From: a virus | Taxonomy: Duplodnaviria; Caudoviricetes | Virus record (IMG/VR): IMGVR_UViG_3300049210_000020 | Location: 2,834-66,833 of that record | Length of the DNA stretch: 64,000 nucleotides | Direction: 5' to 3' (one strand) | Part shown: one piece after another, positions 3,514 through 32,843 of the stretch | How the letters are laid out: every line of letters starts with the position of its first letter | Position numbering within the stretch: the stretch's first letter is position 1 | Translations under genes and position numbers: made by a program | The notes under the pieces: generated by a model | Seen by the model: the letters and a program-made list of their open reading frames with translations, nothing else | Database searches by the model: none | What the model was told of the DNA's origin: nothing

Positions 3514-4250
3514 TCCGATCCATAAATATCATCCGCCGTAATCCGCGTGTGCGCTTTCCCAAACCACGGTCTCGGCGCCACCACTCGCTTGTCTGGTGCA
3601 TCACTCAGCACTGCGGCCATCGCGGAGTAGCTGGAGTTGGCGATGATGAAGTGGCGGCAGCGCTTCATCAACTTGAAATCTTCCAGATAATCCCGCCCTT
3701 CGGAGTACTCCACACTTGGCCCAAACATCTGCTTCGCCCCGACAATGTCATCACTGAAAACAAGAAACTTAGCGCCGGGAAACTCGGCCATTGCGGGACG
3801 ATAGTAGTCCATCGTCAGTCGCGGGTGGTATCCATCTCCGTCAGTGTAATCCCCCGCCCGCCAGTGGATGGCTACGTAATCGTTCTGTGGTGGTTCGTCT
3901 TTCATGCGCAAGTACCATCGGATTTCGTCCAGTGCATGCGAGAAATACTTTTCGGATTGAAAATGTCCCTTGAGACTTACACTCTCAGTTAGATCAACGT
4001 CGTGAAATCCCCAATCGACCCAGCGCTCGGGTAATGGTGGACCGGAATAAAGCGGCAACGGATTGGCAAAATGCTCGTAAACGTTGACGCCTTCGCTTGA
4101 GCCAAACCGATCCCGATGGTCGTGATTGATCCACGGCGGGAAGGCGAAGTCCGCATTGTTGCGACGGGCTACGCCAATCGTCCCGGCCACCTGGTAAGCG
4201 CCGTTGCAAAATCGGCCCATTAGCCCGAGGCTGGCAAATGTCACTATCAT
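3486..4250 (-). CDS. Alpha-1,2-fucosyltransferase, GT11 family
   Basis: GLMGRFCNGAYQ (cf. GRLGNQMFQ), AIHWRAGDY (cf. HxRRGDY), LVFSDD, DFKLMKRCRHFIIANSSYS, VVAPRPWF. Confidence 0.88.
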   Translation of the reverse strand: MIVTFASLGLMGRFCNGAYQVAGTIGVARRNNADFAFPPWINHDHRDRFGSSEGVNVYEHFANPLPLYSGPPLPERWVDWGFHDVDLTESVSLKGHFQSEKYFSHALDEIRWYLRMKDEPPQNDYVAIHWRAGDYTDGDGYHPRLTMDYYRPAMAEFPGAKFLVFSDDIVGAKQMFGPSVEYSEGRDYLEDFKLMKRCRHFIIANSSYSAMAAVLSDAPDKRVVAPRPWFGKAHTRITADDIYGSDWKVIDWRS

Positions 4251-28162: not shown

Positions 28163-29235
28163 TCACCCTTAATAGAAAGCAGCTGGCTGACAGCCTGACA
28201 CTGCTCTCCTCGGCGCTGGAAGTGAGAACTGCACAGCCGATTCTAGGCTACATGAAGCTTGAAGCCGCGCAGGGAACCGCAACGCTCACAACCACGCGGC
28301 TCGACGCTACCTTGAGCGTCAGCGTGCCCTGTGAAGGCGATGATCAGGTCTGTTTATTGTTCGCGCCGTTTCGAGACGCGGTAAAGTTGGCACCTGACGG
28401 TCAGGTCAGGCTGCAACGCTTTGAGAACCGCTTTGAAGTCACTGCGGGCCGCTCTCGCCACCGGCTTCCTATCTACGAAACCGACGCTTTTCCAGCAATG
28501 CCCGTCGAGACAGGCCAGACGCTATCAGTTGACGCCAAACGTCTCTTGGACGCTGTAGAACGGGTTAGCCCTTGTGCTGATAAGCGTGAGGGCAGATACG
28601 CGGCTCAAGGCGTGTGTTTAGAGGCGGCAGAAGGTGAACTGAACGTAGTTGCGTGTGACGGCACACAGGCGGGGATTGTGCGGCTAATGGACAGCGATCT
28701 AACGTTTCAGTCCACCGTGCCGAACGTCGCGGTCCCGGCGCTGCGAGCGGTATTAGCTGATCGGGACACGGCCATGCTGACGGTGAATGAAAACAGTCTC
28801 ACAGTGGAGTGCGAGGGCCGCAAGATGGTAACGCGACTCCTGCTCGGCACATTCCCGCCGTGGCGCATGATTGTGCCGACTGAGACGCCGCATAGCGTGA
28901 CGCTGACTACTGAGGTCAGGGATGCAATCCGGCGCTGCTGCGTAACTGCCAGCGAGGGGAATCTGGTACGGCACAGGCTAAAGCTGGAGTTTGAGCGCGA
29001 ACGGCTTACAGTGTGTTCTTATGAGGGTGACGGGGAGTCGATTGAAGAGGTTCCGGTGAATTGTCCGACACTGAACGGGGAATCGCTGATTGTAAAGGTG
29101 AACGCGGATCAATTGCTCGCGTTTCTAGGGCAGGTGGACACGCCGGAGTTGAGGCTGAAAGACGCGACTTCGATCCTGCTATTGACTGAGGGCGATCATC
29201 GTTATTTACATGCTACGTTGAGGCCGGACGCATGA
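28159..29235 (+). CDS. dnaN: DNA polymerase III beta sliding clamp homolog
   Basis: 358 aa; QPILGYMKLEA, TTTRLDATL, FPAMP, QGVCLE, VACDGTQ, VTRLLLGTFPPWRMIVP, VKVNADQLLAFL. Confidence 0.9.
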   Translation: MITLNRKQLADSLTLLSSALEVRTAQPILGYMKLEAAQGTATLTTTRLDATLSVSVPCEGDDQVCLLFAPFRDAVKLAPDGQVRLQRFENRFEVTAGRSRHRLPIYETDAFPAMPVETGQTLSVDAKRLLDAVERVSPCADKREGRYAAQGVCLEAAEGELNVVACDGTQAGIVRLMDSDLTFQSTVPNVAVPALRAVLADRDTAMLTVNENSLTVECEGRKMVTRLLLGTFPPWRMIVPTETPHSVTLTTEVRDAIRRCCVTASEGNLVRHRLKLEFERERLTVCSYEGDGESIEEVPVNCPTLNGESLIVKVNADQLLAFLGQVDTPELRLKDATSILLLTEGDHRYLHATLRPDA

Positions 29236-31142
29236 AGCCGTATTACGAAGATGAACATGTACAGATCTGGCATGGGGATTGTCGGGAAGTAATAAAGACG
29301 CTCGCTGACAGTTCAGTTGATTCAGTTGTTTGCGATCCCCCCTACGAGCTCGGATTCATGGGCAAGGGCTGGGATCGATCAGGAATCGCTTACGACATTG
29401 CGGTGTGGTCTGAGTGCTTGCGTGTTCTTAAACCCGGCGGTCACCTGCTTGCGTTCGGAGGCTCACGAACTTATCACCGCTTAGCTTGCGCGATCGAAGA
29501 TGCGGGCTTTGAAATTCGCGATCAGATTCAGTGGATTTACGGATGCCTGAGCGATGATACAGAAATCCTCATCAATGGGCAGTGGGAGCCTTACCATAAA
29601 GCCGTAAAAGGTAGTCCCGTATTATGCTACAATGTGGGCCATGACACCTTTGAGTGGCAGCCCGTCCAAGACCTGTACGTCTATCAATACAGCGATACCG
29701 CATACAGAATTCAATCGGCTTCTACGGATCAAATCGTCTCCCGAAATCATCGCTGCATCGTTGAACGAAGCGGAGCGTACACATTCGGAGTTGCTGAGGA
29801 AGTCGCACGGGAACGCGAAGCGCGTGTACCCGTTTTGGAAAACGTGTCGGCAGTGCTCGACGCCTTTTGCATGTTGGACCAAAGAGCAAGCTGTTCGGAA
29901 TGCGACGTGCTCTCCGTTATGCACAGCGAAGGCAATCTCGACCGCAAAGAAGGGAAAAACAAAACCTCTTTCGGAACGGAAGGGGCGGGTGATTATTTGT
30001 GCGGTGTGTCGCAAGAAGAAATGGAAGCCGGATGCCGCGCTTCGCAAGGTGGAAACGCCAACGTGCTCATATCAGTGCAACGGAAAATTGCGGAGCACGA
30101 CTCTAACCAAAAACAAGTTCGACAGAACCGGAATGAAGTTTCCGGGCACGGGGCTAAAGGGCGACAAGAATCCGGCGTGGAAGGGCGGTGTAACTTATTT
30201 TCGGAAACACGGCAACTACAAGCCCATCAAGTATGTGCGATGCCCGCCGGAATTTCAGGCAATGGCCCGCAAGGATGGCTACGTGATGGAGCATCGTCTT
30301 TTGGTGGCCCAAGCAATCGGACGGTGTTTGCTTCGGCTGGAGACAGTTCACCACGACGATCACGATCCTGCCAACAACGAATTGACGAACTTCCTTCTTT
30401 TTGCCACGAACCGCGATCACAAACTGTACGAGCATCACGGTTCACCCGCACCGATCTGGCGCGGATAACCCCCTTTCATTATGACGGCGTTGTCTGGTGC
30501 GTTCGCGTGCCTTCGGGCGCGTTTGTGGCGCGGCGCAACGGTAAGGTATTCGTTACAGGCAATTCAGGCTTTCCCAAATCATTGGACGTGTCGAAAGCAA
30601 TTGACGCGGCTGCGGGAGCGGAACGTGAGATTGTTGGGCGCAAGCCGATAGGTTGGGGCGGTCTTCACGCCAATGCGCGGTTGAACGATGATGGTTGGGC
30701 CAAGATTGGAAGTGATTATCCCGATGGACAACCGATCACCGCTGCAACATCAGACGGGGCCAAGCAGTGGAACGGCTGGGGCACAGCATTAAAGCCCGCA
30801 CATGAGCCGATTGTGTTAGCCCGCAAGCCTATCGTTGGCACCGTTGCCCAAAACATACTTGAGCACGGAACGGGCGGGCTAAATATCGATGGGTGCAGAA
30901 TTGAAGGTAGAAGTTGGGGAAGTCGTCCCGCGATTAAATTAACGAGCAAGGGTAAAAGCGGCGGGGGCTTCGGACAGACCTCGTGGGAACCAATAGCAGG
31001 GCAAGTCAACGAAGATCGCGGTCTCGGACGCTGGCCCGCAAATGTTATCACGAGCTACCCCGAAGATGAATACGCGCTCCGATCCAGCATAACACCAGAG
31101 CAAAAGAAAGAGCTATTCAAGTGGCTATATGAGAACGCCTAA
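29232..31142 (+). CDS. DNA amino-methyltransferase (N6/N4), N-terminal part, intein-containing
   Basis: IWHGDCREV, SVVCDPPYEL, LRVLKPGGHLLAFG, FEIRDQIQWIYG|intein|SGFPKS, GTALKPAHEPIVLARKP, GRWPANVI. Confidence 0.88.
   Translation: MKPYYEDEHVQIWHGDCREVIKTLADSSVDSVVCDPPYELGFMGKGWDRSGIAYDIAVWSECLRVLKPGGHLLAFGGSRTYHRLACAIEDAGFEIRDQIQWIYGCLSDDTEILINGQWEPYHKAVKGSPVLCYNVGHDTFEWQPVQDLYVYQYSDTAYRIQSASTDQIVSRNHRCIVERSGAYTFGVAEEVAREREARVPVLENVSAVLDAFCMLDQRASCSECDVLSVMHSEGNLDRKEGKNKTSFGTEGAGDYLCGVSQEEMEAGCRASQGGNANVLISVQRKIAEHDSNQKQVRQNRNEVSGHGAKGRQESGVEGRCNLFSETRQLQAHQVCAMPAGISGNGPQGWLRDGASSFGGPSNRTVFASAGDSSPRRSRSCQQRIDELPSFCHEPRSQTVRASRFTRTDLARITPFHYDGVVWCVRVPSGAFVARRNGKVFVTGNSGFPKSLDVSKAIDAAAGAEREIVGRKPIGWGGLHANARLNDDGWAKIGSDYPDGQPITAATSDGAKQWNGWGTALKPAHEPIVLARKPIVGTVAQNILEHGTGGLNIDGCRIEGRSWGSRPAIKLTSKGKSGGGFGQTSWEPIAGQVNEDRGLGRWPANVITSYPEDEYALRSSITPEQKKELFKWLYENA
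29544..30563 (+). mobile_element. Intein (340 aa) in the methyltransferase
   Basis: Block A CLSDDTEILING, block B DQIVSRNHRC, block F/G YDGVVWCVRVPSGAFVARRNGKVFVTGN followed by +1 Ser; removal restores WIYG-SGFPKS. Confidence 0.9.
29632..30468 (+). CDS. HNH endonuclease encoded in +1 frame inside the intein
   Basis: CRQC, CAVC...CSYQC, KGDKNPAWKGG, DGYVMEHRLLVAQAIGRCL...ETVHHDDHDPANNELTN; true start uncertain. Confidence 0.85.
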   Translation: MWAMTPLSGSPSKTCTSINTAIPHTEFNRLLRIKSSPEIIAASLNEAERTHSELLRKSHGNAKRVYPFWKTCRQCSTPFACWTKEQAVRNATCSPLCTAKAISTAKKGKTKPLSERKGRVIICAVCRKKKWKPDAALRKVETPTCSYQCNGKLRSTTLTKNKFDRTGMKFPGTGLKGDKNPAWKGGVTYFRKHGNYKPIKYVRCPPEFQAMARKDGYVMEHRLLVAQAIGRCLLRLETVHHDDHDPANNELTNFLLFATNRDHKLYEHHGSPAPIWRG

Positions 31143-31758
31143 CTGTAAATGCTTGGTTTGCGCGAAGCCACTCTATCGCCGTCCGTTTGAACTGGCGAAG
31201 GTGAGACATGTCGCATGTATGGCCCACCGTGCGGAGGCGCAGAAGCTCTCCGGTATCACGGAGAAACAACGCGCGGGCCTTGCTCTTGGAAGTGTTAAAG
31301 GGACGAATCACCGGGAGGGCCACGTCAAGAGCGAAACAACCAAGCTCAAGATAGCCGAGGCCAACAAGAAATATTGGGCTGACCATCCCGCCGAGCTTGC
31401 TGCCAGAGGCGAACAGATGCGCGGAGAAAACCACTATCAATGGAAAGGTGGCATAACGGAACTAAATAAGGCAATTCGGCAGATGAACGAAAACCGCAAA
31501 TGGATGGATGCTGTAAAGGAACGTGATAGTGAGAAGTGCACTCGTTGCGGCTCGGTAGAGGAAATCGAAAGCCACCACATTATTGAACTCGTGACGCTAA
31601 TTGAAATCTACGAAGTTAAGACGCGAGACGATGCGCGGGCCGTTCCTGCGTTTTGGGACTTGAGCAACGGCGAAACGCTTTGCCGACGATGTCATTACGC
31701 GGAACACGGAAGGACATATCGTGCAGATAGAAGAGACGACATACAAGAAGCTGCCTAA
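31129..31758 (+). mobile_element. Free-standing HNH endonuclease splitting the methyltransferase
   Basis: CLVC, NUMOD3-like HVKSETTKLKIAEANK, GENHYQWKGG, ERDSEKCTRCG...ESHHI...WDLSNGETLCRRCH. Confidence 0.85.
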
Positions 31759-32374
31759 CCATCTAAAGGCGTTGTTTTACAAGCTGCCGAATCCCGGATC
31801 AGATGAAGTGCTGGCAGCGTTTCCAGACGCACCGGGGCAACAGCGCAGCGCGAGCGACAGCCAGCGGACGCAAGGTCTTGTTTATAGCGCAATCAGTCTG
31901 AACGGGACTCGTATACATGAACCGCGTGAAGACTTTGGCTCTGCAGCGCGATTCTTCTACTGCGCGAAAGCAAGCCAAGAAGATCGAAACGAAGGCTTAG
32001 AAGATCTTCCAATGCAGAGCGCGGGCGCGGTCACTGATCGCAAGGACGGAAGCGCCGGCCTGAACTCACCACGAGCTGGAGCGGGCCGAAATAACGGATC
32101 GCGCAACCCTCATCCAACAGTTAAGCCAACCGACTTAATGCGGTATCTCTGCCGACTCATAACGCCTCCGGGCGGCACAGTGCTAGATCCGTTTTGTGGA
32201 TCAGGCAGCACGGGCAAAGCAGCGGTGCTCGAGGGGTTACGGTTCATTGGCGTTGAGTTAAGTGCTGAATATTGCGAACTGGCTCGACGTCGAATAAAGG
32301 TGCAGTACAACAGAATGACCTTGTACCACCTGATAGAAGCTAAAGAACGACAGGGAGCGCTGCTTGATGGCTGA
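31721..32374 (+). CDS. DNA methyltransferase, C-terminal part
   Basis: GSDEVLAAFP, SAARFFYCAKAS, NPHPTVKPTDLMRYLCRLITPPGGTVLDPFCGSGSTG (SAM motif), FIGVELSAEYC. Confidence 0.9.
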   Translation: MQIEETTYKKLPNHLKALFYKLPNPGSDEVLAAFPDAPGQQRSASDSQRTQGLVYSAISLNGTRIHEPREDFGSAARFFYCAKASQEDRNEGLEDLPMQSAGAVTDRKDGSAGLNSPRAGAGRNNGSRNPHPTVKPTDLMRYLCRLITPPGGTVLDPFCGSGSTGKAAVLEGLRFIGVELSAEYCELARRRIKVQYNRMTLYHLIEAKERQGALLDG

Positions 32375-32540
32375 CGACACGAAAATCGACGCTGACCGCG
32401 AGTGGACTCCTGATCGAATAGCGGCGCTGGAGTGCGTGGATCGCGGTGAAGGGTTGAAGCCGTGTCATGTTTATGTTGACGGGAGCGGGAGATGTCAATG
32501 CGGCGACGGGCCGGATTTGAATGAGCGGAGGGTGAAGTGA
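32367..32540 (+). CDS. Hypothetical 57-aa protein (not in track)
   Basis: MADDTKIDADREW...; GTGA coupling downstream. Confidence 0.45.
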   Translation: MADDTKIDADREWTPDRIAALECVDRGEGLKPCHVYVDGSGRCQCGDGPDLNERRVK

Positions 32541-32843
32541 GCGACTTAACTGAGAGAATATGCATGGCCCAAGTCGAAGCGGGCGAGAATGCTGTCGTTG
32601 ACGATCTGCGCCGGAAGGGGTTACTACCACCAACAAAAACCGCCATCGCAATTCGACTTGGATCAGCTACGCAGCCACATGCGAGAGTTCATCGACGAGC
32701 GCGCGCCGGATAGTTCATCGGTGACGGAGTACGAATGGCCCTTTGAAACGTTCCTTCAATGGCTCAGTAAGCGCCGCGTGGCAGACGACAACGTACTGAC
32801 ATTCAAAATTGAGAAGGGAGCGGGGAATGGGAATGTATCGTAA
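32537..32843 (+). pseudogene. ORF with apparent +1 insertion
   Basis: GTG start coupled to upstream stop; ...LLPPT then KPPSQFDL in +1 frame at A5 run 32635-39; length 3n+1. Confidence 0.4.

Follow-up and report, generated by a model that had tools for sequence, protein, structure and literature searches.

Can a gene that has been cut in two by a homing endonuclease gene still yield a working enzyme when neither an intron nor an intein restores it? The question is raised by a 64,000-nucleotide (nt) stretch from a virus of the Caudoviricetes (Duplodnaviria), positions 2,834 to 66,833 of the IMG/VR virus record IMGVR_UViG_3300049210_000020, hereafter called the window, in which a DNA methyltransferase gene is divided at 31040-31830 by an HNH gene. 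Homing endonucleases are thought to persist in genes by hiding in introns or inteins, and the only proven alternative known to us is that of reassembling tails, from a single phage (Aeh1). A sequence-only reading of the window had proposed that the invading element brings its own short peptide tags, one for each cut end, through which the halves could re-associate without splicing. Our analysis supports this reading. The split layout is real and was confirmed as correct in every detail, and it belongs to a widespread cassette, for which we found no published description, of a mechanism proven once, in Aeh1. Below, the upstream and downstream parts of the enzyme are called the N-half and the C-half, and the added peptides the tail (on the N-half) and the head (on the C-half).

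Layout of the split methyltransferase gene

Three open reading frames (ORFs) make up the locus, and in the ORF list they overlap, all on the + strand and in three different frames. Methyltransferase part 1 (29232-31142, 636 aa) ends in ...GRWPANVITSYPEDEYALRSSITPEQKKELFKWLYENA*, an intact and free-standing HNH homing endonuclease gene follows (31129..31758, 209 aa), and methyltransferase part 2 (31721-32374, 217 aa) reads GTG-QIEETTYKKLPNHLKALFYKLPNP-GSDEV from a GTG start. The ATG of the HNH gene at 31129 lies 11 nt ahead of the part-1 stop, and ATGAGAACGCCTAA encodes both the ...YENA* that ends part 1 and the MRTPN that begins the nuclease. At the other junction the 5' end of part 2 overlaps the 3' end of the HNH gene by 38 nt, and a Shine-Dalgarno (SD) sequence for the C-half (GGAAGGA, 31708..31714) is embedded in the nuclease codons that specify HGRT and precedes the GTG by 6 nt; the overlap between the HGRT codons and the start of the C-half is also present in relatives. 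No promoter-like site and no + strand terminator-like site was found within the three ORFs, which probably form one transcript together with the upstream clamp gene.

Homology to uninterrupted methyltransferases extends to the last residue of GRWPANVI, whose ATC codon ends at 31049, and is found again from GSDEV, whose GGA codon starts at 31796. Alignment with the methyltransferases of phages 9NA, RHph_X2_25 and Cr-LKS3 places the break between ANVI and GSDEV, the usual HD being absent, and in a tblastn search of GenBank phages the best matches to part 2 begin at residue 26. The uninterrupted form that had been reconstructed from the window, GRWPANVI-(HD)GSDEV, does not hold for every allele, since the short-fused alleles described below do not read I-HD-GSDEV. 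The native part of the N-half, which carries the DPPY catalytic side, occupies 29232..31049 as judged from the ORF list, Pfam and the alignment with uninterrupted homologs. The native part of the C-half, delimited by Pfam and PDB relatives, runs from 31796 to the stop at 32374 (GSDEV... HPTVKP ... DPFCGSGSTG) and carries the side that binds S-adenosylmethionine (SAM). Between them stands a cassette of 746 nt (31050..31795; 2 mod 3), whose limits come from homology and, for the right border, from a comparison of two near-identical loci given below. It consists of the tail TSYPEDEYALRSSITPEQKKELFKWLYENA, recognised from the sequence and the family consensus, with 30 codons followed by a TAA at 31140-31142 (31050..31142), the HNH gene, translation signals, and the 25-residue head (GTG)M-QIEETTYKKLPNHLKALFYKLPNP (31721..31795), which is conserved in relatives and covered by an AlphaFold2 model.

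Both parts match the Pfam family N6_N4_Mtase (PF01555) above its curated cut-off of 26.7 bits: part 1 with 36.8 bits over profile positions 1-111 (DPPY side), part 2 with 74 bits over positions 159-220 (FxGxG side). By profile and motif order the gene is a beta-class N6/N4 DNA methyltransferase, with VCDPPYEL in part 1 and DPFCGSGSTG in part 2. ORFs, Pfam and alignment agree with the sequence-only reading that the enzyme is split by a free-standing HNH gene, the stop and start codons overlapping, and that the DPPY and FxGxG motifs end up on different polypeptides. Structural matches of the C-half (M.BceJIV, CcrM, M1.HpyAVI and M.RsrI) cover its SAM-binding end, the last ~70 residues, and a Foldseek search with the C-half model recovered this end alone. 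The middle ORF matches Pfam HNH with 24.4 bits (cut-off 21.4) as well as PHROG HNH families, in agreement with an alignment of relatives. Its product has a Cys-rich N-terminal region that starts with MRTPNCKC... and a C-terminal HNH region with CxxC pairs, and the nuclease alignment displays H150, H189, C137/C140, C185 and, nearly so, N180 as invariant residues.

One way to keep such a gene functional would be a splicing event that has escaped recognition, either through an intron core overlapping the HNH ORF or through trans-splicing by very short intein-like ends. Since the 746-nt insert is 2 mod 3, its exact removal would give an in-frame ANVI-GSDEV; moreover, Asn24 of the head is invariant, many nuclease genes reside in introns or inteins, and one intein lies 500 bp upstream. 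Nevertheless, the Rfam covariance models of group I and group II intron ribozymes gave no match at E<=10 in window positions 28800-32800 and none at E<=1 in 7 related loci, and the only 79 + 37 nt of the cassette outside the HNH ORF evolve as codons; an intron was rejected on these two grounds. An intein or split intein was likewise rejected, because the insertion comprises three frames and a stop, no Pfam intein domain matches these ends, and a Hint fold needs far more than their 55 residues. The junction residues are also unsuited, as the tail begins with Thr/Leu-Ser and the head ends in ...LPNP|G, with no Cys, Ser or Thr after the Asn. That intein and intron motifs are lacking at the cut ends, as noticed earlier, was borne out by both databases, and we consider hidden splicing highly improbable. 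An in-frame insertion that hides an HNH gene, of the ShiLan type, was tried too and rejected, the host frame being closed by the TAA at 31140-31142.

Recurrence and mobility of the cassette

Among the best 120 matches of a metagenome protein search with part 2, about 60 are stand-alone C-halves of ~200 residues, and in 28 of the 30 that were fetched the head M[QRK]IxExT[YF]KxLPxHLxALFxKLPNP stands before GSDEV, the rest of the protein being 51-94% identical to that of the window. At the DNA level, a pattern for LPNPGSDEV retrieved 11 viral contigs, all with the tail, the MRTPN-HNH gene and the head, and a pattern for PAN-x5-PEDEY retrieved 22 viral contigs, 2 genuine contigs of metagenome-assembled genomes (MAGs) and at least 120 metagenome contigs. 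All of the tail-pattern loci examined, at least about 75 from viral, genome and metagenome sources, keep this same order. Altogether, at least about 65 distinct split loci were collected from metagenomic and viral material, with the same site, tail, MRTPN-type HNH gene and head, in methyltransferases that are mutually only 50-60% identical. The tag pair first noticed around one HNH gene is conserved across this whole collection. In the family, the N-half ends as ...RWPAN[LV]I[LT][ST]YPEDEYxLxxDxTPxQxxxLxxWxxENA*, and the nuclease gene begins with MRTPNxxCxxCxKPLYRRP over the N-half stop and ends with ...CHYxxHGR.. over the start of the C-half.

The nuclease leads to the same loci. A profile scan of IMG/VR returned 34 loci, all at the split site with tail and head except for one weak N-terminal match, and they include differing methyltransferase flanks: L269 is without LPNP and L275 reads on as KHDPGCPCYMLDEQSG. 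In 1.84 billion representative proteins, 24 relatives of the nuclease were found at E<=1e-30, below which the matches are generic HNH domains. Because the 50,697 GenBank phage records hold just one weak match, to the nuclease only, the cassette is known from uncultured material only; neither these records nor full-text literature searches revealed the split cassette. The best 80 loci found in IMG/VR with a C-half profile are all unsplit. A single-chain methyltransferase with the full tail and head fused was not found among proteins >380 aa with the head region, which is weak evidence. As far as sequence comparison can tell, the cassette is a recurrent mobile unit and not a one-off break.

In a tree of the native C-half, split alleles (38), short-fused ones (5) and ordinary ones with HD (71) are intermixed; the split state requires 13 changes, at least 6 of which are forced by well-supported branches. 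The most direct comparison is that of the split locus L104 with the unsplit locus L057, which are near-identical on this tree and have DNA flanks that are 97% identical. Their identity restarts exactly at the GGA of GS(E)DV, just before which L104 reads ...AAGTTACCAAATCCG and L057 ...AATCTTATTCACGAT, the cassette-free L057 allele around the site being PANLIHDGSEDV. The right border therefore lies between LPNP and GS. The HNH gene is thus present or absent at one site in near-identical alleles, and by this comparison of sequences the cassette is shown to be mobile.

Near-identical pairs of split and unsplit alleles that would also place the left border were sought and none was found; L087 and L103, the candidates considered, gave a mosaic without a clean border. 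These two are otherwise near-identical split genes that differ, on either side of the cassette, in hypervariable patches with sharp edges, which look like mosaic exchange in the target-recognition region. No direct repeats at the cassette borders able to drive excision were found in the window. An 11-nt direct repeat, AAGCTGCC(T/G)AA at 31748-31758 and 31781-31791, encodes KLPN twice in the head and was seen in this lineage only.

Alleles of a further kind bear on which parts of the tags belong to the element. Seven loci (five distinct; L098/L125, L165, L189, L200, L217 and L227) are unsplit and without nuclease and read ANLILSYPEDEY-DxxGxL-LPNPGK[DE]EV. These short-fused alleles fall in two places on the C-half tree, and they would be either scars left by loss of the inner cassette or alleles of the type in which the cassette originated. 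Since SYPEDEY and LPNP, the outer portions of the tags, occur in these nuclease-free alleles, their link to the nuclease is not strict. The parts strictly tied to the split are the ~22 residues xLxxDxTPxQxxxLxxWxxENA of the tail and the ~21 residues MxIxExxYKxxPxxLxxLFxK of the head. The claim that the element brings its own tags accordingly holds for these inner parts, which are conserved with the nuclease across the at least about 65 loci, and fails for SYPEDEY and LPNP.

Selection on the peptides and on the two halves

Codon positions were compared over 51 distinct tail/head pairs. Identity at positions 1, 2 and 3 is 0.65, 0.75 and 0.43 in the tail, and 0.61, 0.71 and 0.43 in the head, and the conserved Leu, Pro and Thr residues are encoded by 4-6 synonymous codons. 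This drift at third positions and the use of synonymous codons argue against a role in RNA structure and for translated peptides under constraint.

Both halves are under constraint as well. Between split loci, N-half, nuclease and C-half alike have ratios of nonsynonymous to synonymous substitution rates (dN/dS) of about 0.1-0.5. DPP[YFAW] is retained in 47 of 48 complete N-halves. Of 47 complete C-halves, 42 match P[FIV]xG[ST]G[ST], and a near variant is present in at least one of the five others (L237: DCFAGTGST). The nuclease gene of L237 (oriented 1379-2284) has an internal deletion, and its N-terminal part is in frame with the head and the C-half; both tags are retained. A different change is seen in L153 (585-1121), and also in L154 and L181, where an unrelated HNH protein (..DGYHIHHLDNDKTNND..) is encoded at the same split site between an analogous tail, VIKSNISDKDILRIRNYFNGKKS*, and head, MYRITEKQFNEMPSELQELYEKLPNP. 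This arrangement suggests either a swap of the nuclease within a split that persisted or two separate origins of the design.

These data bear on the possibility that the methyltransferase is dead, its ORFs being remnants carried by a selfish element and the tags plain element sequence. In favour of this, two insertions in the same gene have been tolerated by the phage, and a methyltransferase is dispensable on some hosts. However, the motifs persist in both halves at nearly all loci, dN/dS is well below 1 in both, and the stop, the SD and the start are conserved. Besides, an intein in part 1 (described below) keeps its frame open over 1 kb, and the halves have outlasted the decay of the nuclease at L237. 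A dead enzyme is, on balance, a distinctly poor account of the locus.

Probable assembly of the halves, and related systems

How the two polypeptides might work together is suggested by the position of the break. In beta-class enzymes the N-terminal part (motifs IV-VIII) and the C-terminal part (motifs X and I-III) combine into a single domain of Rossmann type, and the target-recognition region lies between the two. Because the break falls in this middle region, the fragments would retain a large natural interface. Activity from two polypeptides that each supply part of the fold is known for two-subunit DNA methyltransferases, natural and engineered, such as M.AquI alpha/beta; unlike the gene split by the cassette, enzymes of the M.AquI type are C5 methyltransferases, without a nuclease cassette or element-borne tags.

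The explanation that fits best overall, and which we hold to be fairly probable, is that a homing cassette splits the gene, that the halves assemble non-covalently, and that their junction is formed or stabilised by the acidic tail together with the basic head. A 746-bp homing-endonuclease cassette has been inserted in PANVI-HD-GSDEV, between the DPPY catalytic part and the FxGxG SAM-binding part. Its nuclease would cut the conserved PANxIHDGSDEV coding sequence of cassette-free alleles, and repair would copy the cassette in (homing). The cassette is self-contained, closing the upstream half with a tail and a stop and restarting the downstream half with an SD, a start and a head inside the last HNH codons. 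The three ORFs would be co-transcribed and translationally coupled through the overlapping stop and start, and the two fragments would co-fold through their large interface into one non-covalent enzyme of Rossmann type. Junction formation or steadying by the acidic tail and the basic head may then make the insertion cheap for the phage.

The charges of the peptides are in line with such a junction. Over 50 pairs, the acidic tails average a net charge of -1.6 when counted after PEDEY and of about -5.6 when it is included, and the basic heads average +2.0; in the window the net charge is -2 for the tail and +2 for the head. That the tags are short and helical, as had been read from the letters, agrees with the AlphaFold2 models, in which helices are predicted for both. 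In the model of the window's C-half, with a mean predicted local distance difference test (pLDDT) score of 70, head residues 1-20 reach 83-89 and form two short helices (5-10 and 13-16); they adjoin a loop at 36-52. In that of the L104 N-half (mean pLDDT 72), the tail has a helix at 278-290 (pLDDT about 75-80; blocks 80 and 75) after loops with a pLDDT of 40-50. Tail and head were also considered as duplicates of one helix, an idea that was rejected since their profile-profile score was matched or exceeded by 34% of 2,000 column shuffles.

The Rossmann-fold interface alone might assemble the halves, which would then work as two pieces with tags that are not a clasp: each tag would cap or stabilise its own fragment, or would owe its constraint mainly to the ribosome-binding signals and to the nuclease start and stop with which it overlaps. 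This fits the confident modelling of the head in a monomer, the overlap of the HNH ORF and its SD with the codons that end the tail and begin the head, the want of significant likeness between tail and head profiles, and the dispensability of the Aeh1 tails for fragment-fragment binding. It fits less well with the ~20 residues per side that are conserved without overlapping the nuclease ORF, with opposite net charges that recur over the 50 pairs, and with tags that persist where the nuclease is deleted or different; we judge it rather unlikely.

Several points do weigh against a junction held by the tail and the head within a homing cassette. The left border is not fixed by a near-identical pair, L104 and L057 having diverged over ~650 bp upstream, as would be expected after co-conversion from a different donor. 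PEDEY and parts of the head served to find and recognise the loci, and their own conservation is inflated by this ascertainment; outside any search pattern, the tail conserves Leu+2, Thr, Gln, Leu and Trp, and the head Ile3, Glu5 and Lys21. Given its high pLDDT in a model of a single chain, the head might pack against the half to which it is fused instead of against the tail. For covariation between tail position 19 (Lys/Arg) and head position 14 (His), the nuclease tree offers only 2 independent changes, too few for statistical power. Finally, the Aeh1 tails are needed for the higher-order dimer and not for fragment-fragment binding (PMC3045599), and this analogy leaves the exact role of the tags unfixed.

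Aeh1 had been put forward as a precedent for nuclease-split genes, and it reaches further than was then claimed: in its NrdA, split by mobE, activity requires the tails that arose through the insertion (Crona et al. 2010, PMC3045599). As in Aeh1 nrdA-a / mobE / nrdA-b (Friedrich et al. 2007; PMC3045599), a free-standing gene of the HNH family stands here between two separately translated ORFs. Each fragment likewise bears an extension that uninterrupted homologs lack and that was acquired through the insertion, the two extensions have opposite charges, and neither RNA nor protein splicing is involved. Aeh1 is a single phage and its host enzyme a ribonucleotide reductase, whereas here the same peptides come with a cassette at at least about 65 distinct loci, moving between diverged alleles of a methyltransferase. 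The charge polarity is also reversed, with an acidic tail and a basic head. A function of the tags is proven for Aeh1, and the window's tags would probably act in a similar manner.

A further HNH endonuclease cassette that splits a gene is mobA of phage T4, between the topoisomerase genes 39 and 60. T4 gene 60 requires a 50-nt translational bypass, unlike the present locus, at which no bypass is seen. The products of genes 39 and 60 both have tail-like extensions according to Crona et al., who predicted that such tails may be overlooked elsewhere (PMC3045599). Fractured genes (Dassa et al. 2009, PMC2677866) share with the cassette the adjacent gene halves, a homing endonuclease gene between them and the metagenomic origin; in contrast to their split-intein halves, which splice, the 30- and 25-residue ends described here have no intein blocks and no junction nucleophile. 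Hidden HNH insertions of the ShiLan type and inteins with an out-of-frame HNH, both described from actinobacteriophage methylases (PMC11855218; bioRxiv 10.1101/2025.01.02.630785), also combine PF01555 phage methylases with homing HNH genes. Those inserts are in frame and leave one polypeptide, while the cassette closes and restarts the frame and leaves two; split forms are not mentioned by Arsenault, Gosselin and Gogarten 2025 (PMC11855218).

If this explanation is true, the single Aeh1 case becomes a family with dozens of natural variants. Comparative material is at hand in the matched tail/head pairs and in cassette-free, decayed-nuclease and one nuclease-replacement cases, and the peptide pair may offer a small natural tool for splitting proteins. 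The cassette matters for annotation too, given the many stand-alone ~200-residue methyltransferase C-halves with this head among metagenome proteins. A broader proposal, to which we give an even chance, is that of a portable "split-and-clip" cassette. Its nuclease, matched acidic and basic peptides and stop, ribosome-binding and start signals would turn any invaded allele into a working two-subunit enzyme. It would be a third general route besides introns and inteins, widespread in uncultured phages and absent from cultured ones.

The same methyltransferase family is entered by nucleases elsewhere. Part 1 of the window carries an intein (CLSDDTEIL ... VFVTGN|S; about 29541-30555, + strand) across which the host frame is open for 1.9 kb, and the HNH ORF of this intein (29632-30468), with PHROG HNH matches, is in the +1 frame, one base out of the host frame. 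In the C-halves of many split relatives a third insertion is found after AARFF..; it is in frame with the host and hides an out-of-frame HNH ORF, as in ShiLan (L096:3239-3667; also L084, L092, L100/L105, L149, L157, L188, L231 and L275). Because these ShiLan-like inserts in the C-half add another site, the family is, by sequence criteria, one with at least 3 separate nuclease landing sites. A minor observation concerns L109, an Anaerolineaceae MAG contig: 2 kb downstream of its cassette, at 4143-4230 on the - strand, there is a match resembling transfer-messenger RNA, with 35.6 bits and E 1e-10, which falls short of the gathering score.

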